41,294 nucleotides of DNA, taken from NCBI GenBank assembly GCA_045863395.1, contig BTVJ01000064.1, forward strand, positions 1 to 41,294. Direction: 5' to 3'. A program made the position numbers and the translations under genes. This stretch comes from Myxococcales bacterium (lineage in GTDB: Bacteria; Myxococcota_A; UBA9042; JABWCM01; BTVJ01). Below the pieces are notes generated by a model. It was given only the letters and a program-made list of their open reading frames with translations. It was not told the DNA's origin and made no database searches. Positions 8,504 to 41,294 of this stretch are shown here, in pieces; within the stretch, counting starts at the first letter, position 1; every line of letters starts with the position of its first letter.

Positions 8504-8506
8504 GGC

Positions 8507-8577
8507 GGGGTCAAGTATACTCAGATCTCATATCCTGGCACGCCCAAAAAATATGAGAACTGAGTATACTTGACCCC
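8507..8577. repeat. AT-rich 27-bp inverted repeat with 17-nt loop (hairpin; REP/MITE-like or terminator)
   Basis: GGGGTCAAGTATACTCAGATCTCATAT (8507-8533) pairs with ATATGAGAACTGAGTATACTTGACCCC (8551-8577) at 26 of 27 positions. Confidence 0.85.
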
Positions 8578-10152
8578 CTACCTCAGCCCCAGCTCCTTCA
8601 GGCGGAAGAGGAGGCCGCGCTTCGAGACGCGGAGGGCCCCTGCCAGCGCATCGACGTCCTCGCCGTGGGTGCGGCGCGCGGCCAGCACCTCGTCGAGGGT
8701 CACGTCGCTCGCCTTGCGGACTCGGGTGCTGCGCTCGATGAGGGCGTAGAGGGACGTGCGCGACACGTTGAGGGCCCGCGCCGCGGCGCCGACCTTCCAG
8801 GCGTTCTTCTCCAGCGCGCCGATCAGCTCGTCCTCGGTGACCGTGTTGGGGTCGCGCCACGCGGTGTCCGGCTGCTCCGCAGGGACCGGCGCCTCCGCCT
8901 GGGGCTGCGTGAGCTGCCGCTCGACCGCAGGGTCGAGCCACGCCACGTCCGAGCCACGGCTGGTGATGACGATCTGGCGGACCACGTTCTTGAGCTCGCG
9001 CACGTTGCCGGGCCAGCCGTAGCAGAGGAGCAGCGCGACCACCCGCGCCGGCAGCCACGGGGCCTGGTCTCGCGGCTCCAGGCGCCACGCCTCGCCGGTC
9101 GCCTGGAGCTCGGCGCGCAGGAAGTAGGCCACGAGCCTGCCCACGTCGTCCCGGCGCTCCCGCAGCGGCGGCAGCGAGATCACGTAGCCGCTGAGCCTGT
9201 GCAGCAGGGCCGAGCGGAAGGTCCGCTCCGCGCACGCCTGCTCCAGGTCGGTGTCCGTCGCCGCCAGCAGGCGCACGTTGACCCGTCGGGTCACCGGAGA
9301 CCCGACGGGCTGGAGCTCCCCGGTCTCCAGCACGCGCAGCAGCATGGCCTGCACGTCCATCGGCGCCTCTCCGATCTCGTCGAGGAACAGCGTGCCGCCG
9401 TCCATGCGCTGGAAGTGCCCGGCGTGATCCTTCACGGCGCCGGTGAAGGCTCCCCGCGCGTGCCCGAACAGGTCCGACGCGGCCGTCGTCGCCGGGATGG
9501 CCCCCATGTTGACCGCGAGCCACGGCCGCCCCCGCCTGGGGCTCGTGGCGTGGATGGCGCGCGCCACCAGCTCCTTCCCGGTGCCCGTCTCGCCACGGAT
9601 CAGGATCGGGATCTCCAGATCGGCCACCTGCCGGATCTGGGCGCGCACCTGCTCGACGCGCGGGCTCGATCCGACGATGCCCAGGTCGTCCCCCGGCCGC
9701 GCCGGAGGCCCCAGCCAGTGCAGCAGCACGACCACCCGGGCCGCCACCTCGATGATCACGCCGCGGTCCAGGTCGGCGGCCGAGATCTCACGCGGGCTCG
9801 TCAGCGGCTGTCCGTCCACGACGGTGACCGCCCCCGAGGGTACGAGGCGGACGGCCCCCCCCGCCGGCTCGATGAGAAGCGGCTGGCGGCTGACGTAGGG
9901 GTCGTCGATGGCGCGAGCAGAGCCACCTGCCGGCAGCGTGAACGGTGGCTCCATGCGGGACAGGCGGGCCGCCCGCCCGGCGACGAGCGTCGTGAGCCGC
10001 GCCTGCTCGCCGACGCGGCTCACGTCCGGGTGCCAGGCGATGGTCAGGCCCGGCACCCGGGTGCTCAAGCGCCCGGTCTGGCCGGGCTGCAGCGTATCCT
10101 GGGAGCCCCGCAGGGTAGTCGCCTGGATGTTGTTTCGGGCCATGGGCGGCAT
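8578..10152 (-). CDS. Sigma54-dependent transcriptional activator with FHA-like N-terminus
   Basis: GETGTGKE, GAFTGA, LFLDEIG and WPGNVRELKN motifs; C-terminal HTH; N-terminal IDDPYVSR is FHA-like. Confidence 0.93.
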   Translation of the reverse strand: MPPMARNNIQATTLRGSQDTLQPGQTGRLSTRVPGLTIAWHPDVSRVGEQARLTTLVAGRAARLSRMEPPFTLPAGGSARAIDDPYVSRQPLLIEPAGGAVRLVPSGAVTVVDGQPLTSPREISAADLDRGVIIEVAARVVVLLHWLGPPARPGDDLGIVGSSPRVEQVRAQIRQVADLEIPILIRGETGTGKELVARAIHATSPRRGRPWLAVNMGAIPATTAASDLFGHARGAFTGAVKDHAGHFQRMDGGTLFLDEIGEAPMDVQAMLLRVLETGELQPVGSPVTRRVNVRLLAATDTDLEQACAERTFRSALLHRLSGYVISLPPLRERRDDVGRLVAYFLRAELQATGEAWRLEPRDQAPWLPARVVALLLCYGWPGNVRELKNVVRQIVITSRGSDVAWLDPAVERQLTQPQAEAPVPAEQPDTAWRDPNTVTEDELIGALEKNAWKVGAAARALNVSRTSLYALIERSTRVRKASDVTLDEVLAARRTHGEDVDALAGALRVSKRGLLFRLKELGLR

Positions 10153-10154
10153 CC

Positions 10155-12077
10155 TCAGGGCAACGAGCCCGACGACTCTACCCTACCCGTGAGGTGCCGC
10201 TCCAGCCACCCGAGACACTCCTGGTACCACCGGCGGGCGTTGGCGGGCTTCTGGATCCAGTGCCCCTCCTCGGGGAACAGCACGAGGCGGCTCGGCACCC
10301 CCCGCTGCTGCAGCGCCGTGAACGCGGCGATGCCCTCCAGGACCGGCACCCGGAAGTCCTGCTCACCGTGCAGCACGAGCATGGGCGTCGACCACCGCTC
10401 GACCGTGCGGCTCGGGGACAGCTCGTCGTACAGCGAGGACGCCTCCGGGGGGCTGCCCCCGAACTCCCACGCAGGGAACCACAGCTCCTCGGTCCCCCAG
10501 TAGAGATTGCGCAGCTCGAAGATGCCCGCGTGGCAGATCAGCGCCCGGAAGCGATCACTGTGCCCTTGGAGCCAGCACATCATGTAGCCGCCGAAGCTCC
10601 CGCCCGCCGCCGCCAGGCGCTCGCCGTCCAGCTCGGGGTGCTCCCGCAGGGCGTGGTCGATGCCCGCCATGAGGTCCGCGACCACCCGCCCGCCCCAGTC
10701 ACCGCGGATCTGGTCCGTGAACGCCTGCCCGTAACCCGTGCTGCCGCGCGGGTTGACCAGCAGGACCGCCACGCCCGCCCCCGCAAAGACCTGGGGGTTC
10801 CACCGCATGTGGAAGTGCGCCATGAACGCAGACTGGGGCCCACCGTGGACCAGCACGAGCAGGGGCACACGCTCCCGCTCCCCGGGCGGCAGCACGAGGA
10901 AGCCGTGCACGCGGTCGCCGTCGGCCCCCTCCCACCACAGGTCCTCGCCCGCGTGCCACTCCACGTCGGCGAGCTGCGGATTGAGCACGGTCAGCCGGGT
11001 CAGCGCGCCGGTGTCAGCCGCCAGGCGCCACAGGTCTGCCGGCGCGTCCAGGGACTCCAGAGAGACGACGAGGTCACCGCCCGGCAGCTCGTCCACGAGC
11101 TGGGCGTAGCGGCCCTGGAGCACGGGCCCCACGACTCCGTCCAGAGAGACGCGCCAGATGGAGTGACGGCCCCAATCCTGGCCGTCGAACAAGATTGAAT
11201 CCCCCGAGCGGGCCCACTGGAAGCGCCTGATCGGGCGATCCAGGGTCGCGGTCAGGCACCGCACGGAGTCGGTCTTCGTATCGAGGACGAAGAGGTTCCG
11301 CGCATCGGACTCATATCCCGGACGGCTCATGCCGAGCCACGCCAGATACCGCCCGTCCGGAGACCACCGCGGATCCACCTCGCACGCCTCGCTGGTGGTG
11401 ACTCTCGACGGCTCCGATGCAGGCGCGACCCGCCACACCGTGTTGTTGGTGCCCAGCGCCGGCTGGGGGTCCGGGTTCCAGACCAGCGCCACCTCGTCGG
11501 ACCCGGGGCGCGCGTCGAAGTCTCGCTCGCCTTCCAGGGCGATGGGTGGGCAATCCGCGTCCGTGTCACTGAGGACCACGGTGTGACCCGACGCCAGGTC
11601 CGCACGAAACACCACGTTGCGGTGGTGATCCCGCCACTCGTTCCAGTGGCGGAACAGCAGGCGCTCCGCCGTCCTCACCCCTTTGGGTGGGTCCGCTGGG
11701 GTCGTCGTGCTCGCGTACAGGAGCGAGCCGTCGGCCCAGGCAAAGGCGCTGACCCCATCCTTGACCGCCGTGAGCACCACGGGGTCCCCTCCGGCGGACG
11801 GGAGCGCCCAGACCTGGGTGCTCCCCGCGCGGTTGGACAGGAAGCCGAGGGTCCCGTCCGGCGAGAAGCGCGGCGAGGTGTTGGACGTGCCCGTCCGCGT
11901 GAGCTGGGCGAGGGGCCCGCCGTCCGTCGCCACCCGATACAAGTGGGTCGTGACGGTGTTTGCCTCGGGATCATGGCGCGCCACCGCGCACACGACGAAG
12001 CGACCGTCCGGGGACGCCGCCGCCGGACCGAGGCGTCTGACCGCGAGAAGATCGTCTACTGAAAAGCACCTCTTCAC
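10155..12077 (-). CDS. S9 prolyl oligopeptidase family peptidase (dipeptidyl/acylaminoacyl peptidase)
   Basis: TolB/PD40-like propeller repeats, HGGP, GGSFGG nucleophile elbow, DFRV and EGH catalytic residues. Confidence 0.93.
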   Translation of the reverse strand: MKRCFSVDDLLAVRRLGPAAASPDGRFVVCAVARHDPEANTVTTHLYRVATDGGPLAQLTRTGTSNTSPRFSPDGTLGFLSNRAGSTQVWALPSAGGDPVVLTAVKDGVSAFAWADGSLLYASTTTPADPPKGVRTAERLLFRHWNEWRDHHRNVVFRADLASGHTVVLSDTDADCPPIALEGERDFDARPGSDEVALVWNPDPQPALGTNNTVWRVAPASEPSRVTTSEACEVDPRWSPDGRYLAWLGMSRPGYESDARNLFVLDTKTDSVRCLTATLDRPIRRFQWARSGDSILFDGQDWGRHSIWRVSLDGVVGPVLQGRYAQLVDELPGGDLVVSLESLDAPADLWRLAADTGALTRLTVLNPQLADVEWHAGEDLWWEGADGDRVHGFLVLPPGERERVPLLVLVHGGPQSAFMAHFHMRWNPQVFAGAGVAVLLVNPRGSTGYGQAFTDQIRGDWGGRVVADLMAGIDHALREHPELDGERLAAAGGSFGGYMMCWLQGHSDRFRALICHAGIFELRNLYWGTEELWFPAWEFGGSPPEASSLYDELSPSRTVERWSTPMLVLHGEQDFRVPVLEGIAAFTALQQRGVPSRLVLFPEEGHWIQKPANARRWYQECLGWLERHLTGRVESSGSLP

Positions 12078-13651
12078 GGTCGCCCCTTCGATTCGAGCGG
12101 AACCCGCTCGGTCAGTCCCCGCCGCACCGAAGCCGACCGCACGACGAACCAGGCCGTGGCGACCAACGTCACGGCCAGGCTGAAGACGACGGTCTCCAGA
12201 TCGAGGGTCACCACCTTACCCGCCAGGGACCCGCCCAGGCTGATGGACGAGCCCCCAAGGCCGTAGAGTGGGCTGACCGAGGCGATCCACTGCGCCAACT
12301 TCGGGTCGTTGGTCGCCCCAGCGGCGATGGCGGTCAGGATCCACGGGAGCACGAAGGCCAGGAAGGCCGTCAGCAGGAGGCCCGAGCGGTAGGAGCCGCG
12401 CATCGTGAGCCGCATCGACTCGATGGCGCTGCCCACGAAGGCCACCACCGCCGCGGCGCAGGCGAGCGCGAGGGCCGCGTGTCCGTCGTAGAGCCGCTCC
12501 ATGGGCACGCGGCGCCCGACCACCACCGAGACCAACAGCCACCCGCCGACGATCAGCCCCGCGAAGGCCAGGATCACCGGCAGCGCTGTGGCGCCGTCCT
12601 CCAGCCATCCAGGGGCGGCCTTCCCAGCGCGCCGGGCGCGGCGGGTGGTGCGGACCAGGTCCATGTAGCCGGGCGCGAGGCTCGCCATGAGGATCGACGC
12701 CAGGAAGGCAGCCGCCCAGAGATAGGCGACGACCGCCACCCCGGCCATGTCCTCCCCGCCCATGTTCGACCACTGCCCCGTCCCGAGCGCGGTCCACGAG
12801 CCACCGATGAGCAGCACGGTCACGATGGTGAAGAACAAGAAGGCCCCGGGCCGCGAGAACGCCGGAGTCTCGTCTCGCCGCAGCTTGCGCGCGCTCGCCC
12901 ACAGCAGGAACCCGATGGCGATGCCTTGGACCACCAGCGTCCAGGCGATGGGGTGGAGCGGGAAGCCGTAGAAGTCCACGGTGCCGCCGATGGTCAGGTC
13001 GAAGATTGGCCCGGCGGCCAGCGACGCCATCGCGGGGATGGGCGTCAGGTAGGACAGGGTCACGAAGCCCGCGGCGTGCAGCGGCACCGCCCCGAAGAGC
13101 AGGAACATCGCCACGACCATGACAGAGCCGGAGACGCTCCGGCGCCCGCCCCCCGACAGGGCCATGGTCAGGGCCATGGACTGGAGCACGACGCCGCCCA
13201 GCGCGATGAGCGCGACCTGGACGATCACGGTCAGCGGGTTTCCTCCGCCGAGCACGGACGCAATCAACGTGAAGGGCAGCAGCGCCGCCACGACCAGATA
13301 CTCTCGCGCCACCGGCCCGATCAGGTAGCCGATAGCGTCCGTCCACGGCGTCGTCGGCGTCGCCCGGTGAAAGTCGAGGATGCCGCTCGCGCGCTCGTCG
13401 ACCATGGTGCCGGCCACCTGCACGGTGCCGCGAAGCAGCAGCACGGCGCCCATGGTGAACAGCCCCACGTTGGTCACGACCAGCCAGGCCTCGCTGTACT
13501 TTGCAACGCCGCCAGCGAGCAGGCCGCACAGCCCCAGCACCACGGCGATGGCCAGCGTGGGGAGCGCCTGTTTGCCGCGCAGCCGCCGGCGGGCCTGTGC
13601 AACGAGAATCGGGTTGTCTCGCAGCCGCAGCCGCGGCTCACTTCCGGTCAC
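12074..13651 (-). CDS. ABC-2-type permease-like membrane protein
   Basis: NPILV N-terminus, ERASGILDF motif and many TM helices; 4-nt overlap with the ABC ATPase gene. Confidence 0.75.
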   Translation of the reverse strand: MTGSEPRLRLRDNPILVAQARRRLRGKQALPTLAIAVVLGLCGLLAGGVAKYSEAWLVVTNVGLFTMGAVLLLRGTVQVAGTMVDERASGILDFHRATPTTPWTDAIGYLIGPVAREYLVVAALLPFTLIASVLGGGNPLTVIVQVALIALGGVVLQSMALTMALSGGGRRSVSGSVMVVAMFLLFGAVPLHAAGFVTLSYLTPIPAMASLAAGPIFDLTIGGTVDFYGFPLHPIAWTLVVQGIAIGFLLWASARKLRRDETPAFSRPGAFLFFTIVTVLLIGGSWTALGTGQWSNMGGEDMAGVAVVAYLWAAAFLASILMASLAPGYMDLVRTTRRARRAGKAAPGWLEDGATALPVILAFAGLIVGGWLLVSVVVGRRVPMERLYDGHAALALACAAAVVAFVGSAIESMRLTMRGSYRSGLLLTAFLAFVLPWILTAIAAGATNDPKLAQWIASVSPLYGLGGSSISLGGSLAGKVVTLDLETVVFSLAVTLVATAWFVVRSASVRRGLTERVPLESKGRP

Positions 13652-30038: not shown

Positions 30039-30311
<273 letters not shown>

Positions 30312-31292
30312 TCATCCGGCTGCGGCTCGGCCGTCCATCACCTCGGTGCGCAGGCGCGCGACGCGGGTGTCAATGGCATCGCGCGGGCCCCGGTCCCCCG
30401 GCCCCTGGGCAGCCATGGCCTCTTCGAAGAGCGACAGCCACCGCTTGAGCGCCCGGGTCTGCAGGCGAACTCCGCGCGCGCCGAGAAGCTGGAAATCGTC
30501 TGGCGCCACCATGCGCCGGTTGATCACCGAGAGCGTGAGCCGGTCGACGACGCGCACGCGAAAGGGCTCGATGACGTCCAGGGCCAAGGACGACCTGCCG
30601 TAGCGGACGCCATGATAGTACCCGACACGGGGGTCGAAGCCTGCCGCCTCCAGCCGCCCCGCGATCTCGCTGGCGAGCAGCGTGTAGCCGAGGTTGAGCA
30701 GGGCGTTGACCTCGTCCTCGGCCGGGTGGCGCGAGCGCCGCGTGAAGGCGAAAGGCGGCCTCACCATCGTGGAGAACCCCTCGAACCAGGCGGCTGCGGC
30801 CGCTCCCTCGATTCCCCGGAGGGAGTCCAGGTCCGCTGCATCGGCGCAGCGAGGGACTGCCTGGTCGAGCCGCACGAGCACCCCGTCGAGCACCGGGGCC
30901 GCGTCGGGGTGGTTGCGGCGGTACCGCTGCGCGTGCTCCCGCGCCCCCCGAATCTTGTCGGTGACCAGCCCCTTCGCGAGCGCCAGCCGGAAATCCTGCT
31001 GCGTGTAGCGGGCGTGCTGGGCAAGACGCAGGAAGACATTGCCCGACTCAGGCCCCACGATCTGGCCCCGGTACCGCCCCTGGGACGAGAGCAGCACCAC
31101 GGAGACCCCATGGCGCAGGAGCAGCGCGATCGCCTGCGTCGTGAGCTGGACGTTCCCCATGAGCACGACCCGGTCCAGCTCGTCGGCGGCCCAGCGGTCG
31201 AGCTCCTGACGGTCGACGGAGACGGCGATCTGGGCGGCCGACCGGTGGATGCGCGCCCCCTGGTGAGTCACGTAGACGACCTTGCGGACCAT
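30312..31292 (-). CDS. cas1: CRISPR-associated endonuclease Cas1
   Basis: LRGIEGAAA, VNALLNLGY, GFDPRVGYYH and LALDVIEPFR motifs; catalytic E, H and D residues are present. Confidence 0.96.
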   Translation of the reverse strand: MVRKVVYVTHQGARIHRSAAQIAVSVDRQELDRWAADELDRVVLMGNVQLTTQAIALLLRHGVSVVLLSSQGRYRGQIVGPESGNVFLRLAQHARYTQQDFRLALAKGLVTDKIRGAREHAQRYRRNHPDAAPVLDGVLVRLDQAVPRCADAADLDSLRGIEGAAAAAWFEGFSTMVRPPFAFTRRSRHPAEDEVNALLNLGYTLLASEIAGRLEAAGFDPRVGYYHGVRYGRSSLALDVIEPFRVRVVDRLTLSVINRRMVAPDDFQLLGARGVRLQTRALKRWLSLFEEAMAAQGPGDRGPRDAIDTRVARLRTEVMDGRAAAG

Positions 31293-31320: not shown

Positions 31321-33846
31321 TCAGGCCCATTCGTGGTTGGTGACGGGAGCCACGAGGACCCCGGCGCTGCCTGTCGCGGGGCCGGCTCCTGCCTGCGCCG
31401 CGCGCATCCCCGCGGGCACCTCTTCGAGGCGGGCGATGATCGCCGCTGGGACGGCCTGCGAGGCGGGCGCCGCAGAGGACGTCGCCGCGGGCGTGGCTTC
31501 CGGCCCGGGGCGAGGCGCTGGACGCCCAGGGCTGTCCCGCCACGCCCGCAGGAACCCTCCCGCGTGAAGGAGCGGCGTCGGAAAGCCCCCCCGGCGAAGA
31601 CGCTCAGAGAAGTCGCAGCGGCAGTCGGGCGCCAGCTCCGGGTGCTTGTCCTGAAGACGCCGGCAGCCGATGGGGACCGCGGTCAGTCTGCCGATGTGCC
31701 GCTGCGTCTCGGCCACGTCGTAGTTTCGGCACTTCCCGATGATCGCATGGATGGCGCGCTCCCCGTGAGTCCCCAGGTGCCCGAGCGAGTGAAGGAGGCT
31801 CGTCCGCTCATGGTGCGTCAGGTGGCCTACCATGGCGCTGCGCCGCGCCAGTCCGCTCAGGAGCTGGCAGCCGCTCATCACCCGCGCCACGCCGGCGCCA
31901 AAGCTATCCATGGCGGGCAACGCCGCGGGCACGAACACGCTCTCTCCCGTCGGGCGAGGGGAAGCAACAGGCAGCGGGAGGGCAGAAGGACCACCACAGA
32001 AGATCCCCTCGAGGGTCGGTGAGACGCTCGTCCCATCGTCCCACGTCAGGTGGCTCCGCCGACCGGTGCCGCGGTGGACGCCGAGCGGGAGCGCCATCAC
32101 GCGGTCATGGGCGTCGGTGGCCTCGTCGCCGGCAGGAAGCGCCTCCAGGGTGACAGCACCTCCCGCGTCCCCTGCACGGCGGCACCACTCCGCCACCAGT
32201 CGTGCCACGTCTGCCGCGCACACGCGGCCTTCGAGGGGGATCCACACATGAGCGCCGCGGCCCCCGGTGTCTTCCACCAGGAACCGGACGCCCGCCTGGC
32301 GCAGAGCAGTACCCAGGGCTGCGACGGCCACATCTATCGGATCGCGGCCGTCACGAGGCCCGTCGATGTCGATGACGGCAAGCGTGCAGGCGCCGTCGTC
32401 GAGGCGCGGAGCCACCGCCAGGCGCTGGCGGCCCATCAGGTGCTCTCGCACATCGGGCGGCCCCGGCGGACGGCTGACCCGCACGTACTCTCCCTGGCCG
32501 GCAGCAGTGGGCTCCCACACCGCGAACCAGGACGCGCCCGCGCAGAACAAGGCGAGCCAGGCGTCCACGGCGTCGTCGTCGATGGCCGGATCGGGGGACG
32601 GCTCAGAGGTCGCGGGCGTATCAGTCCGTGCCATGGCCTCCTGCCAGGCTGCCTGCGCGCCCTCGAAGTCTCCTCGAGCGGCCAGGCTCTCTGCCTGATC
32701 CAGGAGCGCCGCCACCTCCCCGCGGGCGTCCTCGGGAGCGGGGTCGTCGGTCTCGGGCTCCGTCTCCCCCGGCTCCTCGGCCCACTCGGCGCGCGCCTCC
32801 TCGTCGAGGTCGGGCTCGGGCGCATCGGGGTGCTGCCCCAGACGCTCGTGCAGCAGCTCCCGCGCCACCCGGTCATGGACGCCGAGGGACGTCCCTGGAG
32901 GGAGCGGCGTATTGAAGTACTGGGCCCACCCGCGGATGATGGGCTCGATGCGCTCGCGGAGGGTCGCGGTGGGAGTCGCAGGCTCCTGATCGAGGCGCGC
33001 CCGCAGCGACTCGAGCGCCCCTTCGCTGGCCCGGAAGCCACGCGCGCCGACGACGAAGCCGAGCCACGGGAAGCCCTCCGACGCGGCGATGACCTTGTCG
33101 GACCCGGCCTTGACGGAGAAGCCGCGCCGAGAGAGCTCCGTGCGGAACAGGCCCAGGGCACGCTGGGCCTCCGCAGATGTCGAGGCCACGGCGCACAGGT
33201 TGTCGCTGTATCGCAGGAAGCTGAGGCCAGCGTCCTCCATCGCCCGGTCAAAGCGGGTCAGCGCCAGGTTGGCCAGCGACGGAGACAGGGCGCACCCTTG
33301 GGCGAGTCCCACTCCAGGACGCGTGGCGTGGGCGTGGAGGAGTGACGCGACCAAGCTGTGCACATCGGCATCGACGAGGTGGCGCACCTCGTCGAGCAGG
33401 GCGGGCAGCGGCACCGTGTCGAAGAAGTCGCGTATGTCCGCGATGGCCGCCCACCCCAGGCCTTCGGAGACGCGGCGAGAGACCAGCTCCACGGCGTGTC
33501 GGGCCGACTTCCCCCGCCGGTAGGCCCAGGCGGCCGAGGAGAGCACGCGCTCGATGCGTGGGTCGACCACGGCGCGGAGCAGCTCGACGACGACGCGATC
33601 ATCCACGGTCGGAACGGCAAGGCGTCGCATCCCGCCACCCGGCTTGCGGATTCGATGGCGTGCAAGGGGCCCCGGGCGCCAGGTGCCGCTCTGGAGGCGC
33701 TCGGACAGCTCTGCCGCGCGCGTCTCCCGGTCCTGGCGCCACGCAGCAGGTGTCACGCCGTCGGCGCCGGCCGCGGCGCTGCGGCGCGCCACGGTCTCGA
33801 ACGCCAGCTCGATGGCAGCAGGAGTCATCCGGTCGCGCAGGGCCAT
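31321..33846 (-). CDS. Reverse transcriptase fused to CRISPR-associated primase-polymerase (RT, TPR-like helix, AEP, Cys-rich PriCT-like domain; CART-CAPP-like), with a disordered tail ending HEWA
   Basis: RT: IRKPGGGMRRLAVPTVDDR, ADIRDFFD, AQGCALSP, YSDN, FPWLGF. AEP: VIDID, EDTGGRGAHVW, ALPLGVHRGTG. C-terminal Cys domain: CQLL...KCRNY...PIGCRRL...CRC...PTPL. Lies immediately upstream of cas1-cas2. Confidence 0.88.
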   Translation of the reverse strand: MALRDRMTPAAIELAFETVARRSAAAGADGVTPAAWRQDRETRAAELSERLQSGTWRPGPLARHRIRKPGGGMRRLAVPTVDDRVVVELLRAVVDPRIERVLSSAAWAYRRGKSARHAVELVSRRVSEGLGWAAIADIRDFFDTVPLPALLDEVRHLVDADVHSLVASLLHAHATRPGVGLAQGCALSPSLANLALTRFDRAMEDAGLSFLRYSDNLCAVASTSAEAQRALGLFRTELSRRGFSVKAGSDKVIAASEGFPWLGFVVGARGFRASEGALESLRARLDQEPATPTATLRERIEPIIRGWAQYFNTPLPPGTSLGVHDRVARELLHERLGQHPDAPEPDLDEEARAEWAEEPGETEPETDDPAPEDARGEVAALLDQAESLAARGDFEGAQAAWQEAMARTDTPATSEPSPDPAIDDDAVDAWLALFCAGASWFAVWEPTAAGQGEYVRVSRPPGPPDVREHLMGRQRLAVAPRLDDGACTLAVIDIDGPRDGRDPIDVAVAALGTALRQAGVRFLVEDTGGRGAHVWIPLEGRVCAADVARLVAEWCRRAGDAGGAVTLEALPAGDEATDAHDRVMALPLGVHRGTGRRSHLTWDDGTSVSPTLEGIFCGGPSALPLPVASPRPTGESVFVPAALPAMDSFGAGVARVMSGCQLLSGLARRSAMVGHLTHHERTSLLHSLGHLGTHGERAIHAIIGKCRNYDVAETQRHIGRLTAVPIGCRRLQDKHPELAPDCRCDFSERLRRGGFPTPLLHAGGFLRAWRDSPGRPAPRPGPEATPAATSSAAPASQAVPAAIIARLEEVPAGMRAAQAGAGPATGSAGVLVAPVTNHEWA

Positions 33847-33854
33847 GGTTCACC

Positions 33855-34226
33855 TCAGACGTCGATCAGCTCTCCAAACTCGTCGATTCGGGGCATGCGC
33901 CGGGGCGCAGGCTGGGGGGGAGTCGGCGGACTCTCGGGCGGGAGCCGCGTGACGGACTCGACGCGCTGCGCAGAGGCGCGCTCAGCCACCCGACGAGGCT
34001 CGGGGCATGCAGGCGTGCCGCTGAGCGTGGTGCGCTCACGACGTCCCGCTTCCTCCTGCGCGGCGACCCACCGCCCGATCACGTGACGCAGCCGTCCGAA
34101 CTCCTGGGCCACGCGGGAGTCCACGCGCTGAACGGCCACGAGGGTTGCGATGCAGAGCCCACAGCAGGCGAGGACCAGCACGATGGCGAACCCCGTCAGC
34201 ATGGCCACGTCCGAGACCTCAGTCAT
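33855..34226 (-). CDS. Small single-pass membrane protein of unknown function
   Basis: One hydrophobic helix (MLTGFAIVLVLACCGLCIATLVAV), a Pro-rich tail, and C-terminus RIDEFGELIDV. It has an SD and an 8-nt overlap with the E1 stop. Confidence 0.7.
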   Translation of the reverse strand: MTEVSDVAMLTGFAIVLVLACCGLCIATLVAVQRVDSRVAQEFGRLRHVIGRWVAAQEEAGRRERTTLSGTPACPEPRRVAERASAQRVESVTRLPPESPPTPPQPAPRRMPRIDEFGELIDV

Positions 34227-35370
34227 CGCCCCCTCCGCAGACCGGGCACTCGGGCCAGCGCTCCGCCTGCACGACCAGCCGATCCAGCGGCTCCTCGAAG
34301 ACCCACGTCTCGGGCTCCATGGTGACGAACATCAGGTTGCCCCGCTGCTCGCCGTGTGAGAACCACGGGTCGACTGGCGCCCCGGACACGAACACGAGCG
34401 CGAGGCGCGCGGCGATGGCCGTGCCCAGGGTCACGTTCACCGGGAGCGCCGGGACGCCGCGGGCGGGGGCAGTCTCCACGGCGTAGGGCTGGAGCGAGCC
34501 CCTCACCGGGGCATGGCGGCCGCCCTCTGCGTAGGTGGAGCAGAGGTGGCACGGCCCCTTCGCGGCGTCGGTGACCAGCTCGATGCGGACGCTGGCCGCC
34601 AGGTCCGAGAAGGCCACATACAGGGTCGGAAACCCGAGGCGCGCGGCCAAGCCGTTGACGACGGCCCGGGAGTCGCGGGTGTCCGTGGCGACGACCACCA
34701 GGTCCGGTCGAGCCGTCTGGAGCAGGTCGGAGAACGCCACCGCATCCCGCACGACGTTCAGGGCGTGGCCTTCGACACGTGCGCCGGGAACCGACGCACG
34801 GACGGCGTCTCTCCAGACCAGGGCCTTCCGGCGCCCCACCGAGGAGGGCGAGACCATGAGTCCCCACCGGACCAGGTTCTCTGTCTCGAGCCGCTCGGGG
34901 TCCACGGCATGGACCGCCAGCCCGAGACGCGCCAGCCGTGTGGCGAGATCGGAGCCCACGGAGCCGGTCCCCACGACGACGACGGTCTTGCTCGACAGGG
35001 CGTCGGCTCCGGGCACCCCACGAACGCGGTCCAAGTATTTGGACTCATCGACGACGACGACGTCGATGGGCAGGCCGCCTTGGGTGGCCACCGCATCGCT
35101 TGCGCGGAGCACGATGTCGCTCGTGTCGAAGGTGGTACCGGGCATCAGCACGACCCCGAGGCGCTGGTCGAGGGTCGGGTCGGCGGAGACTGCCTGGACG
35201 CGGTAGATGGGGCCGTCGTCGGCCGGCTCGACGGAGCCGTAGAGGGCATGTGGAGTCGAGGTCGCGGCCAACCGGGCCACATCGAGCAGCTTCGCGGAGA
35301 TGACGAGCGCACCTGGGGAACGCCTCGACCGCGACTCGATTCGGTGGATGTACTCGTCCAGGGTCGTCAT
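34219..35370 (-). CDS. ThiF/E1-like adenylyltransferase with N-terminal extension
   Basis: VVVVGTGSVGS, VDPERLETENLVR, GRRKA and ATDTRDSR motifs; Zn-binding CHLC and CPVC. Confidence 0.9.
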   Translation of the reverse strand: MTTLDEYIHRIESRSRRSPGALVISAKLLDVARLAATSTPHALYGSVEPADDGPIYRVQAVSADPTLDQRLGVVLMPGTTFDTSDIVLRASDAVATQGGLPIDVVVVDESKYLDRVRGVPGADALSSKTVVVVGTGSVGSDLATRLARLGLAVHAVDPERLETENLVRWGLMVSPSSVGRRKALVWRDAVRASVPGARVEGHALNVVRDAVAFSDLLQTARPDLVVVATDTRDSRAVVNGLAARLGFPTLYVAFSDLAASVRIELVTDAAKGPCHLCSTYAEGGRHAPVRGSLQPYAVETAPARGVPALPVNVTLGTAIAARLALVFVSGAPVDPWFSHGEQRGNLMFVTMEPETWVFEEPLDRLVVQAERWPECPVCGGGDD

Positions 35371-35373
35371 GGC

Positions 35374-36345
35374 TCACCTCCCATCGAGGAAGCGCCCGAG
35401 GGCGCGAAAGAAGTCTGCGAGCGTGCGCCGGGGCCCCCCCGGCACCTGGTAGTCCGCCCGCGTCAGCGCGACGGGCGCGTGCTTCGTGGCTGTGTGCTGC
35501 GGGCCGTCCAGAGCCTCCGCGACCAGATCATCCAGGCGATGGAGGCTGCTCCAGCCGTGCCGAAGCGGCACAGCGGAGAGCTGACCGTGCACGTCGCCGC
35601 GCAGCACCAGGGGGGCTCCCACGGGATATTCGGGAGGAAAAACCACGGAGACGCTCACGCTGCCGCTACGAATCTGAGCTGCCAGGGGCCCGCCGGGTGG
35701 GGCCACGGGTTGAACAGTCGCGTGGAAGCGGCGCCGGATGGACTCCAGGTCGCTCTCGACCCGAGCAGCCGCAGCGTGCCGGAACGTCGCCGCGGCCACC
35801 GGCTCGATCTCTCGGAGCAGCTCCGACAGGGGGGGCAGAGTCTCCAGGGCCGCCGCGGCGGCCGCCTCGCCATCGTCGATTGCCATGACGGGCACCTGCT
35901 CCACTTGGGCGCCCCAAGAGCCGGTGTCACTCGCCACGAAGCCGAGCACGGAGGGCGGGTTGCCCGGCCGACCGGTACCAAGGACCAGCACGAGGTGACT
36001 GCGGCGCTGTTCGCCGTCGCGCAGGATGGACGTCGCAGTCGCTCGATCCGTCTCGGAGAGATACGGCATCCAGAAGGGATGCACGTGCCAGTCGCCCACG
36101 TACGTCGCACCTTGGATGCGCCTCTGGATGCTCGCGATCATCCGGCTCTGCCAGGCGCCGTCGGTGACCACGTGGGACCCTCCCGTCGAGGCCGCCGGAC
36201 CCGCCGGCAGCGCATAGAGCAGGACCGTCTTCCCCGGCAGCTCGAGGGCGACCAAGGACCCCCCGGCCTCCACCTTGTCGCGGAGACCGTCCTGGACGGC
36301 TCGCTCGACGACCTCGAACGCCGACTGGGACATCAGAACATTCAT
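35374..36345 (-). CDS. JAB/MPN (JAMM) metallopeptidase fused to a Cys-less E2/UBC-like domain
   Basis: EAGG...YVGDWHVHPFWMPYLSETD fits HxH-x7-SxxD. The C-terminal RVESDL...VVFPPEYPVGAPLV...WSS resembles the UBC fold. ATG 36345 follows GGAGG. Confidence 0.85.
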   Translation of the reverse strand: MNVLMSQSAFEVVERAVQDGLRDKVEAGGSLVALELPGKTVLLYALPAGPAASTGGSHVVTDGAWQSRMIASIQRRIQGATYVGDWHVHPFWMPYLSETDRATATSILRDGEQRRSHLVLVLGTGRPGNPPSVLGFVASDTGSWGAQVEQVPVMAIDDGEAAAAAALETLPPLSELLREIEPVAAATFRHAAAARVESDLESIRRRFHATVQPVAPPGGPLAAQIRSGSVSVSVVFPPEYPVGAPLVLRGDVHGQLSAVPLRHGWSSLHRLDDLVAEALDGPQHTATKHAPVALTRADYQVPGGPRRTLADFFRALGRFLDGR

Positions 36346-36400
36346 CGCGCCTCCGATTGAGTGGTAGCCGATGGACAACGCGGGTTGAACCGTGGTCGGG

Positions 36401-36820
36401 TCAGACCCAGACGCGCCCCGTCTCCTTCCACTCCTCGTAGTGAAACAGCCAGGCCGACACCCACGCGAGCAGAGTGACGATGGTCGACCGCCTGGTGAAC
36501 GCCTCCCCATGGTCCAGGCAGAGAGAGCCGTCGATGAACCGGTGAGGGGTGTTGGCTGGGAGATCCGGCTCGACGATGTGGGCGACCGGCATGACCCCGT
36601 CGCCGTAGTTTGGTGGCAGCGCCACGAGGATCCGGTACGCAGCCCGCAGAGAGCGGTTTGGTCCTACGATTCCCGTGGCGTACGTGATGCCGTTGTGGTG
36701 GACGTCCACGGTGAACCCTGGGTACTCCTGGGCGAGCACGTCTCTCTCCATGAACAGTCGCTCGCGTCCCTCGGGCGTCTCCCAGAACTGTCCAACTGCT
36801 GCCCAGACGTGCGCGCGCAT
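36401..36820 (-). CDS. Prokaryotic E2 (ubiquitin-conjugating-like) protein
   Basis: RERLFMERDVL, YRILVALPPNY, PHRFIDGSLCL (putative catalytic Cys101) and AWLFHYEEWKETG. GGAGGTG precedes ATG 36820. Confidence 0.82.
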   Translation of the reverse strand: MRAHVWAAVGQFWETPEGRERLFMERDVLAQEYPGFTVDVHHNGITYATGIVGPNRSLRAAYRILVALPPNYGDGVMPVAHIVEPDLPANTPHRFIDGSLCLDHGEAFTRRSTIVTLLAWVSAWLFHYEEWKETGRVWV

Positions 36821-36822
36821 GG

Positions 36823-37071
36823 TCACACCTCCACCAGAGAGGCGAAGTCGCACTTGGACTCGCTGGCGTCGATGCAGGCACCACCCCACTCGTGATCCTT
36901 CATGCTCACGCCCGCAGGAGCTTTGCCGTCTGGAGCGTGCTGCGACGGCTTTCCGGCGCTGGCGTGTGGAGCGGCGTGGGCGGGGTCCACGGCGACCATC
37001 TCACCGTTGACGATGCGGACTGACCCAGCCTCCTTGAGGTGTCTGCGGAGCTCCTCGATGGTCTCGTTCAT
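36823..37071 (-). CDS. Small 82-aa protein, candidate modifier/substrate peptide (contains HEWGG)
   Basis: GGAGG SD, GC3-rich codons, stop 2 nt before the E2 start; first gene of the operon. Alternative start at 37086. Confidence 0.7.
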   Translation of the reverse strand: MNETIEELRRHLKEAGSVRIVNGEMVAVDPAHAAPHASAGKPSQHAPDGKAPAGVSMKDHEWGGACIDASESKCDFASLVEV

Positions 37072-37140
37072 TTCCCGCGCCTCCATGCCTCGATGAGGGT
37101 CTCAGATTGGCGCGACCGCACCCTCGGCCACGCACGGTAC

Positions 37141-37428: not shown

Positions 37429-39180
37429 GTGGGACGGGATTGCGGAGCAGCAGGCGCGACAGCGGGCTCAGTCAGCCCTCCGGGTGCGCGAGGGCACCAC
37501 GGGCCACCAGGCGACGCAGAGCACGCAGACGAAAGGCGCGGGCCACGGCTCCTGCGGTCGCAACCGGGCGCGCATCCCTTCGCGGGCGCCCCGGAGTACG
37601 ACGATGCCGCAGCAGTGATCGGCGCAGAGGAGCCCAGCACGCGACGTCATACCGGGGACCTCGACCCCTCGGACGATGACGCGGCAGCAGCGACCGGCGC
37701 GGAGGAGCCCCGAACGTGGAGGGAACTGCAGGGTGTGCTGGCAGCCGCGCACGTCCTGTTCGGGGCGACGCGCACGGGCGCGGCGCAGCGCGCTCTGGAG
37801 GACTTCCACGGTGTCCTCATGCGCATCCCGCACGAAGGCTGCCGGGACCCGTCATCGCTCTGTCGCCGACTCAGGGACAAGTCGGAGATCTGTCCAAGCC
37901 GGATGCGCGCGTGGGTCGCTGCGGCCATTGGGACCGCGGCCGGGGACTCGGCCTCCCTCCCCTCAGCGTCCCTCTTCCGACGACCCGACGACCTGCTCCT
38001 GGACTTGAGGGAGGTGGAAGCGCTGGCGCATCGCAACCGGCGGTCGTGGTCACCCACGCTCGGCGCCGACCTCCAGCAGGCGGCCCGCCGCGCCGTGAGC
38101 GTGGCCATCGACCGCAAGGCGGCGCTTTGCCGCTCACGGCGTCCTCGCCGCGCCGGCAGCGGAGTTGTGCCGGACCTTGATCGCGTCGCATCGTGGCTCA
38201 GTGACCACCCCAAAGTTCATCGCATGGACCACGCTTCGTTCGTATACGAGCGCATCGACACCATCTGCGAGGTTCTCGACAGGACCCTGGACCGTGGCGC
38301 CCACGCCCCGCTCGCGGCCATGGCATCGGCAGCGGCGCCCCACCTGATGGTGCTCGAGCGCACGGCCATCCTCCGCCGCCTCGCGGAGGCCGTGTCAATG
38401 ACCAGCGCGGACGGGACCCGCACGTGTACCGCCCTTTGGGCCCTGACGGACCTCGTCGGAGCGCACCTATATAAGGATGGCGACCTTGACCAGCTCGGCC
38501 ACGCGGTCCTCAACGACGATGTGAAGCGCTGTATCGAGGACCAAGCGCACGGGGTGGAGGCGCGCGCAAGAGACACCGCAACGGCATCCAAGAGCCGCGC
38601 GCTCCGCCCCATCCTCCTCGCCGTCGCAGCCTTCGAGCGACTGCGTGGACTGACCGCGCATCGCGCCGGGGCCGACCTCCACGTCGTTCTGCACCACCTG
38701 TCCCGCGCCAAAGCACACGCGCTCGATGCATCCCACGAGACCTTGCAGGTCGCCCTCGTAGCAGACGAGTCCGTGGTGCGCCGCGCCCACGGACAGACGG
38801 CGGAGGCCATCGCGTCGCTGGCCCGGGCCCTCGTCATCGCCAGAGGGCACCGCAACCACCGCATGCGCTTCGTCCTTCATCGCGAAGCCGCCTACACCTG
38901 CGCACAGCACGGAGCCCCGCTCCTCGCCCTGGAACACGCCTCGCTGGCGCACGAGACCCTGGACATCATCGACGACCTGTGCGAGATCCAGGTCCAGGGC
39001 CGCATGCGCCCCGGGTGGTACCAGCCCAGCTTCCGCGCAGAGCTGAAGAGGCTCTACGCAGACCTCGAAGGAGCGGGCGTCGCAGTCGAAGCGCTGCAAG
39101 CATCCCACCCCGCCGCCGCCGAGAGCCGTCGTCCGGAAGCACCGACCGACGGCTCGAGGCGTTCCCAACTGAACCGCTAG
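37429..39180 (+). CDS. Hypothetical alpha-helical protein (TPR-like C-terminal half); start uncertain
   Basis: Long ORF that fills the gap between the operon and the CRISPR leader; Ala/Leu-rich helical repeats (AEAIASLARALVIAR, LALEHASLAHETL). Confidence 0.55.
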   Translation: MGRDCGAAGATAGSVSPPGARGHHGPPGDAEHADERRGPRLLRSQPGAHPFAGAPEYDDAAAVIGAEEPSTRRHTGDLDPSDDDAAAATGAEEPRTWRELQGVLAAAHVLFGATRTGAAQRALEDFHGVLMRIPHEGCRDPSSLCRRLRDKSEICPSRMRAWVAAAIGTAAGDSASLPSASLFRRPDDLLLDLREVEALAHRNRRSWSPTLGADLQQAARRAVSVAIDRKAALCRSRRPRRAGSGVVPDLDRVASWLSDHPKVHRMDHASFVYERIDTICEVLDRTLDRGAHAPLAAMASAAAPHLMVLERTAILRRLAEAVSMTSADGTRTCTALWALTDLVGAHLYKDGDLDQLGHAVLNDDVKRCIEDQAHGVEARARDTATASKSRALRPILLAVAAFERLRGLTAHRAGADLHVVLHHLSRAKAHALDASHETLQVALVADESVVRRAHGQTAEAIASLARALVIARGHRNHRMRFVLHREAAYTCAQHGAPLLALEHASLAHETLDIIDDLCEIQVQGRMRPGWYQPSFRAELKRLYADLEGAGVAVEALQASHPAAAESRRPEAPTDGSRRSQLNR

Positions 39181-39363
39181 CCTCCGCGAACGCCCAAACG
39201 GGGGGTATGCTAGCGAAAGAAGGAAGTCATGTTATTTCAATCGGATAGCATCCCCAGAGGCACTTCGCTGCTATGAAAGACTTGCGCACTCGGGGCAAAG
39301 TCGGGCACATTAGCGCTGGAGCCGACGCGCAGTGGCTTGGTGCAAGGGCGCGAAGAGGTGGCT
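39181..39363 (+). promoter_or_regulatory. CRISPR leader
   Basis: Non-coding, relatively AT-rich stretch before the first repeat, with an IHF-like TATGAAAGACTTG at 39272-39284 (one mismatch to WATCAANNNNTTR). Confidence 0.7.
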
Positions 39364-41294
39364 CCTGGAGGGGGGGCGCCCGCTACGAGGGCATTGAGAC
39401 CGATGATCATGTCCTTCTTGTAGTACGTCTTCTGCTTGTGACCTGGAGGGGGGGCGCCCGCTACGAGGGCATTGAGACACGGAAGGAATGTGCTAGTTGG
39501 CGGGGAGTTGGTCGTCCCTGGAGGGGGGGCGCCCGCTACGAGGGCATTGAGACTACCTGGCTTTTGTCAGCCAGAATAACGGCTACTTCGAAACCTGGAG
39601 GGGGGGCGCCCGCTACGAGGGCATTGAGACCCGAGGACCGTGACGTCGGCGGCGGCGGCGGCGGGACAGCCTGGAGGGGGGGCGCCCGCTACGAGGGCAT
39701 TGAGACACCTTGACCTCGGGCGCGGGCGGGGGAGCGGCCTTGATCCTGGAGGGGGGGCGCCCGCTACGAGGGCATTGAGACTCGAGGATTTCGCCGCGCT
39801 TGCTGCTGCACCGCCAGAAGTACCTGGAGGGGGGGCGCCCGCTACGAGGGCATTGAGACCCCGCGCACTTGCCGCCGATGCAGGCGTCCGCATCGGTCCT
39901 GGAGGGGGGGCGCCCGCTACGAGGGCATTGAGACGATGATGAAGAGAAGAACGGCCACGACGAGAAGGATCCTGGAGGGGGGGCGCCCGCTACGAGGGCA
40001 TTGAGACACTGCGGTGCGGGCGTCTGCGGTGCGGGCGTCTGCGACCCTGGAGGGGGGGCGCCCGCTACGAGGGCATTGAGACCGTCGGGTGTCGCATGAC
40101 AACCCGACTTTTTTGTTGAGAACCTGGAGGGGGGGCGCCCGCTACGAGGGCATTGAGACACACAATCCCACTCCGAACACCCTTGTTCGGAGAGAGAACC
40201 TGGAGGGGGGGCGCCCGCTACGAGGGCATTGAGACTGCTGACAGTGAAAATGCGGTACGTTGCCATCTGACTTCCCCTGGAGGGGGGGCGCCCGCTACGA
40301 GGGCATTGAGACCGATCGTACATCTCGAAGGCCACGATGATGATGGCGATGAACCTGGAGGGGGGGCGCCCGCTACGAGGGCATTGAGACCCGGGCCTTA
40401 ACGAGGGTGCAAAAGAAACAATGAACAACCTGGAGGGGGGGCGCCCGCTACGAGGGCATTGAGACCCGCGAGCGACACTGCTCACGAGCGGTTGGTCGAA
40501 CCAACCTGGAGGGGGGGCGCCCGCTACGAGGGCATTGAGACCGACACCCGGGATGCCCTGCGCGCCGTCCTTGCCGTCCCCTGGAGGGGGGGCGCCCGCT
40601 ACGAGGGCATTGAGACACGATGTGGACGACTTCGAGAAGCAGGAAGGTCATCCATCCTGGAGGGGGGGCGCCCGCTACGAGGGCATTGAGACGAAACGGA
40701 CACCCCAACCACGGCGTCGTTGCCTGGTCGGGCCTGGAGGGGGGGCGCCCGCTACGAGGGCATTGAGACCTATATAAACCGCATCAGGAGTTTCTTTCGG
40801 CAGTCTCCTGGAGGGGGGGCGCCCGCTACGAGGGCATTGAGACACTTTGCCCCGATTCGATTGACCCGCCATTCTTCGCAACCTGGAGGGGGGGCGCCCG
40901 CTACGAGGGCATTGAGACGCGGGGTGGGGCCAGCTACAGGTTGTGCTGGCAGCCCCAGGCCTGGAGGGGGGGCGCCCGCTACGAGGGCATTGAGACAGAC
41001 GCGCAGGGGCCCGGGGACCACGTGGTACCCGGAAACGCCTGGAGGGGGGGCGCCCGCTACGAGGGCATTGAGACGTAGGTCGCCCCGAACGCCAGGAGCT
41101 CCTCGACCGTCGACCTGGAGGGGGGGCGCCCGCTACGAGGGCATTGAGACCCTTGATGTCGCGCAAGTCGGCCTCCATCCGACTCGTGTCCACCCTGGAG
41201 GGGGGGCGCCCGCTACGAGGGCATTGAGACGCTGAAGAAATCCTCGCCGCCCCACCACAGGGGCCTCGTCCTGGAGGGGGGGCGCCCGCTACGA
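39364..41294 (+). CRISPR. CRISPR array; repeat CCTGGAGGGGGGGCGCCCGCTACGAGGGCATTGAGAC (37 nt), 25 full repeats plus 1 partial, 25 spacers of 36-43 nt; truncated by the window end
   Basis: Identical repeats from 39364 to 41230, partial copy from 41270. The GCCC/GGGC stem followed by the 8-nt ATTGAGAC handle, and the leader position, give + orientation. Confidence 0.99.

Follow-up and report, generated by a model that had tools for sequence, protein, structure and literature searches.

Why do proteins encoded side by side in a myxobacterial operon share a short motif, H-x-W-[G/A], and which enzymes might read it? The operon lies on the minus strand of contig BTVJ01000064.1 of a Myxococcales bacterium, analyzed here at its full length of 41,294 nucleotides (the window; GC 65–77%) and belonging to a draft genome of 8.77 Mb in 186 contigs. 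Its genes follow one another tightly in the order small peptide, E2, JAB, E1, membrane protein, RT-CAPP, Cas1 and Cas2, where E1, E2 and JAB resemble enzymes of ubiquitin-like conjugation and RT-CAPP is a reverse transcriptase (RT) fused to a PrimPol-type primase. From sequence comparison and by analogy with characterized systems, we propose that a conjugation module like that of type II CBASS (a system for antiphage signaling based on cyclic oligonucleotides) is set within an operon for spacer acquisition by CRISPR (short palindromic repeats that are clustered and regularly interspaced), with HxW[GA] as its tag and the RT-primase as its substrate. We put the probability of this reading at roughly 55%. 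The features of the operon, in order of transcription, are as follows.

36823..37071, minus strand: small peptide, 82 residues counted from MNET; an alternative ATG lies at 37086.
36883..36894, minus strand: motif H-E-W-G of the small peptide.
36401..36820, minus strand: E2, 139 residues, UBC fold, E2-CBASS family, catalytic Cys101 in DGSLCLDH.
36800..36811, minus strand: H-V-W-A at residues 4–7 of E2, which starts MRAHVWA.
35374..36345, minus strand: JAB/JAMM peptidase, 323 residues from MNVLMSQ.
34219..35370, minus strand: E1, 383 residues, ThiF/MoeB-type adenylation domain.
33855..34226, minus strand: single-pass membrane protein, 123 residues.
31321..33846, minus strand: RT-CAPP, 841 residues, C-terminus ...GVLVAPVTNHEWA, C-terminal tail peptide ...GVLVRGLPPHEWA.
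31324..31335, minus strand: motif H-E-W-A, the last four residues of RT-CAPP; the stop codon is at 31321–31323.
30312..31292, minus strand: Cas1, 326 residues, Pfam Cas_Cas1 5e-85.
30039..30308, minus strand: Cas2, 89 residues, NCBIfam TIGR01573 cas2 4.7e-12.

The three motif copies, in RT-CAPP, the small peptide and E2, were found on the minus strand exactly where an earlier sequence-only reading of this DNA had placed them, and its gene names proved correct against Pfam and PADLOC. It had judged three copies in one operon unlikely to be chance, and we agree. HEW[GA] is rare in the genome (29 occurrences in 14.2 million residues of open frames across all contigs, an expectation of 1.7e-4 in 82 residues), and the RT-CAPP and peptide copies are conserved in relatives. 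Open frames of at least 80 residues that end in H.W[GA] number five among 56,005 in the whole 8.77 Mb. As further substrates, four more near-terminal HEW[GA] matches were considered and rejected: they sit in Arg/Ala/Pro-rich frames whose codon-position GC is atypical, and are not credible genes.

RT-CAPP comprises an RT domain (Pfam RVT_1, 1.6e-19; PADLOC RT, 3.5e-56), a PrimPol domain of the archaeo-eukaryotic primase (AEP) type with DxD and GRGxHxW motifs (Pfam AEP-TOTE, 4.7e-10; PADLOC PrimPol 'adaptation polymerase', 1.9e-17), a Cys/His-rich C-terminal domain, a non-conserved linker of about 60–70 residues and the tag. Four relatives at 43–47% identity, returned by a word-indexed search, all end in PPHEWA or PPHAWA. 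A profile search against 1.84 billion representatives, with counts taken among the 150 matches listed, clearly set apart a clade scoring above 800 bits from the remaining matches at 445 bits or less. H-x-W-A was the exact C-terminus in 16 of the 18 full-length clade members, two of which were extra proteins from the word-indexed search, and in all five C-terminal fragments; four N-terminal fragments were not judgeable for the tail. The other two full-length members (P0013 and P0016) carry PPHEWA or PPHRWA and then 10 and 9 more residues. Position x was E in 14 sequences, D in 3, T in 3, R in 2 and A in 1. None of the 125 other RT-CAPP-type matches among those listed (118 of them of at least 800 residues) carried H.W[GA] in the last 20 residues. 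Instead, 67 of these 125, each of at least 800 residues, have as their C-terminus a coiled-coil plus beta domain that closes with ...W-x-I-E-L, which in the present clade is replaced by the linker ending PPHEWA.

RT-CAPP relatives at 38–47% identity keep the extreme C-terminus. In a 22-sequence alignment (38–46% identity), no change is seen at H838, W840 or A841, conservation is at least 90% at P836 and P837, and the preceding linker does not align. The motif codons vary synonymously between loci (CAC/CAT, GAA/GAG, GCC/GCG/GCT), and the distance from RT-CAPP to the cas1 start ranges from an overlap to 28 nt. Both observations point to selection on the protein and rule out a nucleotide-level constraint, such as a ribosome-binding site for cas1, as the cause of conservation.

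The second copy lies in the small peptide (...GVSMKDHEWGGACIDAS...), which consists of a conserved N-terminal mini-domain of about 30 residues (helix plus hairpin), a Pro/Ala linker, GVSMKDHEWG and an extension of 19 residues to the end. This peptide is borne as an N-terminal extension by 49 of 65 E2 homologues; the window holds the split form, in which the E2 ATG lies 2 nt past the peptide stop codon. In the fusions the mini-domain (M-D-P-Q-R-I-E-E-F-R-R-K-L-R-E-G-R-P-V-R-V-V-N-G-Q-V) is followed by a variable Pro/Ala linker and by G-V-x-V-K-P-H-x-W-G, which abuts the E2 core. The 49 junction tetrapeptides are HEWG (38), HDWG (7), HQWG (3) and HNWG (1), and the corresponding hexapeptides KPHEWG (35), KPHDWG (7), KPHQWG (3) and four others found once each. 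Among 41 aligned full-length fusions, H, W and G are invariant, with K and P at least 90% conserved.

Past the glycine, a homologue may have the whole E2 domain, two residues or nineteen, which is the behavior of a processing site. The two-residue cases are L001 and L083, loci related to the window, whose peptides end HEWG-RS or HEWG-TA and whose stop codon overlaps the E2 start. A further peptide, P0008 (73% identical), keeps DHEWG and then diverges. The residue after the glycine (n = 49) is A in 31, S in 9, T in 5, V in 2 and I and M in 1 each. The sequence-only reading had JAB trimming the peptide after HEWG. A cut at this place fits the variable sequence beyond the glycine, the alanine that comes next in 31 of 49 cases and the Gly|Ala cut of the peptidase BilC discussed below; JAB is nevertheless not the sole candidate for making it, because E2-CBASS enzymes cut after such a glycine without JAB or E1.

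No Pfam or PADLOC family matched the peptide, and an Atlas look-up gave no usable match. An AlphaFold2 (AF2) model of the fused homologue P0157 places a helix at residues 3–14, strands at 19–22, 25–28 and 51–52 and HEWG at 56–59, with predicted local distance difference test (pLDDT) values of 37–67 in this part, and contains no beta-grasp in the peptide part. In the split forms at L001 (361–395) and L083 (1404–1440), a one-base shift immediately past HEWG places E2 in another frame, which opens at an ATG inside the GAA-TGG-GG codons; several E2s in databases begin with MG[PLI]xV. There are also variant or decayed forms. In P0199 the peptide–E2 is joined to the C-terminal half of Cas1, an apparent deletion of JAB, E1 and RT-CAPP, and P0220 combines an E2 carrying an internal deletion with a truncated JAB.

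How alike are the peptide and RT-CAPP copies? Compared profile to profile, the peptides and the last 95 residues of the RT-CAPPs align over only 12 columns (GV..PHEW), with a probability of 51% and an E-value of 1.5e-4 that refers to this single comparison. Homology of the whole 95 residues to the peptide was rejected (2.5% in global hhalign), as was homology of the peptide mini-domain to the coiled-coil plus beta domain of other RT-CAPPs (hhalign probability 2%). The rare variant H-R-W-A occurs at both sites in locus L115. Its junction reads GVEVKNHRWA|MAFEW, and its RT-CAPP has lost the stop codon after PPHRWA and gained 9 extra residues, the new stop overlapping the cas1 ATG.

The third copy, at the E2 N-terminus, has a different standing. 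Sixteen of the 65 homologues are split E2s that start just past the motif position, and none of these carries the motif; the HVWA of the window is unique among 17 split E2s. These counts give no support to a general docking or processing role of the E2 copy, a role that the sequence-only reading had raised as a possibility. The window sequence MRAHVWA-AVGQFWETPEG aligns within one residue to KPHEWG-...PFYxxxEG of the fusions, so that HVWA occupies the place of the junction motif. It is probably a junction relic; alternatively, it may be a second processing site. A homologue 56% identical in the E2 core (P0210) has KPHEWG and, 44 residues on, RAHEWS, both before the core. A recent tandem duplication was rejected as the origin of the two copies in the window, since the local DNA alignment score of 9 was reached by 125 of 500 shuffles.

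The sequence-only reading also proposed checking whether the motif tracks with the conjugation genes. It does: the motif is confined to one RT-CAPP clade, with E1, E2 and JAB directly upstream. Tagged-clade loci with known gene context are the window, L001/L083, L002 and L115, four distinct loci that all have E2-JAB-E1 directly upstream of RT-CAPP. L001 and L002 keep peptide/E2, JAB, E1, RT-CAPP and Cas1 in the order of the window, and the Cas1 gene comes after RT-CAPP in L001, L002, L083 and L115. A scan of the species-genome collection with the full RT-CAPP alignment gave 80 loci, of which 78 were set aside as group II intron-type RTs matched by the RT part only; the true relatives were L001 and L002. 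An E2-anchored metagenome scan gave five loci, L082–L086. L083, nearly identical to L001, contains the complete operon; in the remnant L086, E2 is internally deleted and JAB truncated; and L082, L084 and L085 stop short of RT-CAPP.

Of 401 genomes sampled from the phylum, 19 had a CAPP match, and 21 loci were compared, 20 from this sample plus a second locus of the window's own genome. L115 and L116 (the same place as L002) belong to the tagged clade and have E2, JAB and E1. Eighteen other RT-CAPP or CAPP-Cas1 loci (2.8–19.5 kb each) gave no E1, E2 or JAB by tblastn at 1e-4, and their polymerases are without the tag. The second adaptation locus of the window's genome (L081, contig C78, about 7126–13275) encodes a TPR-CAPP of 615 residues, Cas1 and an RT-CAPP of about 990 residues; the latter ends ...RFKLERDL, has Y-A-D-D in motif C and has no E1, E2 or JAB nearby. 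This locus, one of the eighteen, is a natural internal control. An E2 profile matched 10 of the 401 genomes, and the only three scoring above 200 bits (G000, G279 and G289) are the same three that hold a tagged RT-CAPP. Another of the eighteen, L128, has an internal HRWA 24 residues before the end, inside the beta domain.

That the tag is tied to E1, E2 and JAB, in a manner analogous to the tail of the CD-NTase (a cGAS/DncV-like nucleotidyltransferase) of type II CBASS, is well supported by these comparisons. The sequence-only reading had gone further and named HxW[G/A] as the recognition tag of E1 and JAB. Its interpretation is supported in part: the tie to the conjugation genes stands, and the candidate readers of the tag are E1, JAB and E2 itself.

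The catalytic motifs of all three enzymes are intact. E2 (PADLOC E2, 8e-18) has a Cys101 invariant across homologues, and Pfam E2-CBASS (PF26395) is annotated in precomputed domains on 60 of the 65 homologues, which are 47–55% identical to the window E2; the family is thus assigned to the window protein through its homologues. In the P0157 model most of the E2 core exceeds pLDDT 90, and Foldseek matched it to Cdc34, Ubc13 and UFC1 with E-values from 7e-5. Solved CdnG–E2 complexes gave only a weak E2 match (8hsb_B, E 0.022). E1 matched Pfam ThiF (2.6e-20) and PADLOC E1-E2 models (3e-23) and contains GxGxxG, ATDTRDSR and two Cys pairs (CxxC...CPxC). Its closest solved relatives by sequence are Cap2 structures 7tsq, 7tsx and 7to3 (E 6e-11 to 2e-10), then SUMO E1, UBA5 and MoeB.

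JAB matched PADLOC JAB (4e-10) and, below the cut-off, Pfam Prok-JAB (7e-4); it has an MPN domain whose JAMM residues H-x-H...S-x-x-D are invariant in the alignment. Foldseek searches with its AF2 model (mean pLDDT 75) returned Rpn11, AMSH, CSN5 and Cap3 (9ild_A, template-modeling score 0.73 by target), matches that are dominated by the MPN domain. The C-terminal half (35374–35850) forms an extra alpha/beta domain with invariant FPPEYPxGAP and GWSSLHRL. As read from its sequence, this domain recalls the flap motif of UBC/RWD folds.

The closest characterized system is type II CBASS (Cap2, Cap3 and a CD-NTase; Ledvina et al.; Jenson et al. 2023). In Ledvina et al., the C-terminal region of the type II CBASS cGAS is extended and non-conserved, but its extreme end is highly conserved and is found AMP-linked in the Cap2 E1 site. 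The present operon likewise has a Cap2-like E1, a CBASS-type E2, a JAB peptidase, no beta-grasp ubiquitin-like protein (Ubl) and a putative substrate enzyme with a disordered C-terminal region and a conserved extreme end. It differs in having neither a CD-NTase nor a cyclic-nucleotide effector, the tail sitting instead on a CRISPR-associated RT-PrimPol beside Cas1 and Cas2. No cyclase was found among the eight operon proteins, and the match to the PADLOC 'Cyclase' model PDLC00816 covers only its C-terminal E2 part (421–535 of 542). Cap2 is a fusion, whereas E1 and E2 here are separate genes with the JAB gene between them (window, L001, L002 and L115). The E2 N-terminal extension with an internal tag copy, the extra C-terminal domain of JAB, a P-H-x-W-A rather than Gly-type end and the small membrane protein are further differences.

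Two other systems share parts of this arrangement. E2-CBASS (type II short, CdnG and E2 only) is defined by the absence of E1 and JAB (Xiao et al. 2026, PMC12948482); the CdnG C-terminus there is an alpha-helix plus a three-stranded sheet with a conserved Gly at the end, and SmE2 cuts off GFP fused after CdnG and becomes covalently linked, with no E1. The E2 family PF26395 is shared with our operon, as are a conserved Gly and dispensable residues after it; a helix with three short strands before the Gly is suggested by the low-pLDDT AF2 model. This element is attached here to E2 or encoded just before it, whereas in E2-CBASS it closes a cyclase; our operon has conserved E1 and JAB genes, and a second protein, RT-CAPP, bears only strand and tag, at a free C-terminus. 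Bil (BilA Ubl, BilB E2, BilC JAB and BilD E1; Chambers et al. and Hor et al., 2023 preprints) has the same order of small protein, E2, JAB and E1. According to Chambers et al., the BilC cut in BilA falls between Gly97 and Ala98, and as many as nine residues come after the Gly in type II BilA, which matches HEWG|A with its variable extensions. However, the small protein here runs about 60 residues to the Gly, has no recognizable beta-grasp Ubl and is usually fused to E2, the E1 and E2 are of CBASS lineage, and the operon belongs to a CRISPR adaptation module. Since it lacks both a cyclase and a beta-grasp Ubl and pairs an E1 with an E2 of E2-CBASS type, the present system is a member of neither CBASS type nor of Bil.

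RT-CAPP itself resembles the CAPP and CART-CAPP proteins (Zabrady et al. 2021, PMC8211822; 2023, PMC10415136) in the fusion of RT to AEP/PrimPol, in its Cys-rich C-terminal domain and in its place beside cas1-cas2 and a CRISPR array. The accessible text of the 2021 paper makes no mention of ubiquitin, ThiF or JAB, and that of the 2023 paper none of ubiquitin. The literature searched contained no description of E1, E2 and JAB with an RT-primase or with CRISPR adaptation.

How might such a module work? We infer each chemical step, and the target, by analogy with Cap2/Cap3 and CD-NTases. The motif [P]-H-x-W-[G/A], which ends a flexible linker and comes after a short GV-hydrophobic strand, would be the tag read by the enzyme set. 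The RT-primase would be made with this tag already exposed (...PPHEWA-COOH). E1 would adenylate the terminal Ala and hand the tail as a thioester to Cys101 of E2, which would ligate the whole RT-primase to a lysine or amine of a target; candidates are Cas1/Cas2, RT-CAPP itself, the peptide and the membrane protein. JAB would take the conjugate off again, and would also trim the rare RT-CAPPs with 9–10 residues past the tag. The peptide/E2 extension (GVxVKPHEWG|A...) would need a cut after the Gly, made by JAB in the manner of BilC on BilA or by E2 as in E2-CBASS, and the cut would free a second, miniature substrate or release E2.

A more specific form of this proposal, which we offer tentatively, is that ubiquitin-like conjugation controls CRISPR adaptation and that the RT-primase acts as a modifier, covalently and reversibly tethered through its PPHEWA end to Cas1-Cas2, to the E2-derived peptide or to the membrane protein by the CBASS-derived E1 and E2. 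Such tethering would be the post-translational counterpart of the genetic RT-Cas1 and RT-CAPP-Cas1 fusions, with JAB switching it off.

Several findings weigh against tag-directed conjugation of the RT-primase. All loci are related and come from one phylum, so that the co-occurrence counts are not independent events. A divergent relative, L118, has no shared tag, its junction reading LKEHTFAAG and its RT-CAPP ending ...LARVRRNTP. The tag is buried under 9–10 residues in 2 of 18 RT-CAPPs, in L115 through loss of the stop codon. Position x does not strictly co-vary between peptide and RT-CAPP: the pairs are E/E in the window and L001, E/D in L002 and R/R in L115, with E/A, E/E and D/E in three further, tentatively matched pairs. 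The peptide motif ends in Gly in all 49 matches of the E2 search, Ala occurring only at the L115 junction, and the RT-CAPP motif ends in Ala in 23 of 23; two different readers could be involved. Finally, the AF2 model of P0157 gives the mini-domain a pLDDT of 50–67 and the linker and HEWG less than 50, and shows no docking in cis.

Would non-covalent docking explain the same conservation? HxW[GA] would then be a linear motif that binds one pocket and brings RT-CAPP into a complex without ever being ligated, the pocket lying in the C-terminal FPPEYP domain of JAB, the N-terminal domain of E1, the backside of E2 or Cas1. The E2 N-terminal copy would compete for it as an autoinhibitor or switch, and the true conjugation substrate would be something else, or only the peptide. 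Docking accounts for a motif that is internal in the peptide–E2 fusions (49/65) and in 2 of 18 RT-CAPPs, where a free carboxylate is accordingly not always present, and for aromatic and His content unlike the Gly-Gly ends of classical Ubls. The conserved [F/Y/H]GEL at the end of a third operon protein, past a disordered linker, is also what a complex built on linear motifs would lead one to expect. Docking does not require a terminal motif, however, and this one is exactly C-terminal with Ala last in 16 of 18 RT-CAPPs. Its partners form a full E1/E2/JAB set whose catalytic motifs are intact, a set that acts on C-termini, and the closest characterized systems use such tails covalently. We regard docking without ligation as unlikely.

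E2 might also do the chemistry alone. It would recognize the mini-domain ending in HEWG, cut after the Gly and link covalently to the peptide without E1; fused forms would process themselves, the RT-CAPP tail would act as competitor, product mimic or regulator, and E1 and JAB would serve recycling or another step. The Pfam E2-CBASS assignment through homologues, the likeness of the modeled helix and strands just before HEWG in P0157 to the CdnG end on which SmE2 acts, and the residues that always follow the peptide Gly are all consistent with this route. Yet the mini-domain is modeled at low confidence, and the match to solved CdnG–E2 complexes is weak. All four distinct loci keep E1 and JAB, whereas the absence of both defines E2-CBASS. 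The tag at the exact free end of RT-CAPP in 16 of 18 proteins would also be left unexplained. We consider E2-only chemistry rather improbable.

C-terminal non-polar ...A ends can serve as degrons in bacteria, and turnover of an RT-primase might need tight control, but a degradation or quality-control signal for housekeeping proteases, resembling the peptide by convergence or chance, is a highly improbable explanation of the RT-CAPP end given the same H-x-W core and GV-strand context in a second protein of the operon, the rare H-R-W-A variant at both sites in one genome (L115), the restriction of the motif to loci with E1, E2 and JAB and the great rarity of HEW[GA] in the window's genome.

In this operon, bacterial ubiquitin-like conjugation of the type II CBASS and Bil kind meets CRISPR spacer acquisition, a link for which we found no precedent in the literature searched. 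If the RT-primase is indeed a conjugation substrate, the 'enzyme as its own ubiquitin' principle of cGAS-like cyclases would be general and not a peculiarity of CBASS, and CRISPR adaptation would gain a covalent, reversible regulatory layer. If the tethering form holds true, the CD-NTase-tail mechanism would be a portable module placed on unrelated immune enzymes. The system is well suited to experiment: the tag is 6 residues long with a defined terminal residue, E2 and JAB offer a catalytic Cys and a JAMM site, and fused, split and extended variants exist in nature as ready controls. A compact, orthogonal tool for protein ligation could also be made of the tag and its enzymes.

Apart from its tail, the RT-CAPP clade is distinctive in RT motif C. 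In the window protein (residues 212–217, RYSDNL; 33196–33213, minus strand) the second catalytic Asp is replaced, giving YSDN. Y-x-D-N occurs in 14 of 18 clade members, the window included; among 118 other RT-CAPPs, 99 show Y-x-D-D alone. All 18 members retain intact PrimPol DxD and GRGxHxW motifs. The RT domain of this clade may have lost some or all of its activity.

The membrane protein, as read from its sequence, joins an N-terminal hydrophobic helix through a Pro/Arg-rich linker to a C-terminal [F/Y/H]GEL motif (...IDEFGELIDV). Both its architecture and its end motif are kept between E1 and RT-CAPP in L001, L002 and L115. This is the third conserved terminal short motif in the operon, and the protein may be an anchor or a target. 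In the divergent relative L118 (G076:C35, 4859–9461), the genes are a peptide–E2 of 193 residues, a JAB-E1 fusion of 534 residues, RT-CAPP and Cas1, and the locus adjoins a gene resembling a type I restriction-modification methylase.

The host genome also carries sigma-54 activators and LolCDE genes, and its nearest relatives are metagenome-assembled genomes of Myxococcota, all of which indicates a myxobacterial origin. Two further features lie on the plus strand of the window, next to the operon.

37429..39180, plus strand: open reading frame of 583 residues, divergent from the operon and located between it and the CRISPR array.
39363..41294, plus strand: CRISPR array with 26 or more repeats, each about 37 nt long (...GCGCCCGCTACGAGGGCATTGAGAC), 73–80 nt from start to start, continuing past the end of the window.

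The 583-residue frame matched no family in Pfam, PADLOC or NCBIfam, and no homologue was found in L001 or L002. A homologue 25% identical occupies the same divergent position in L115, and membership of this protein in the system is uncertain. A CRISPR array similar to that of the window, with 28 repeats ending ATTGAGAC, adjoins the peptide–E2 gene in L002.

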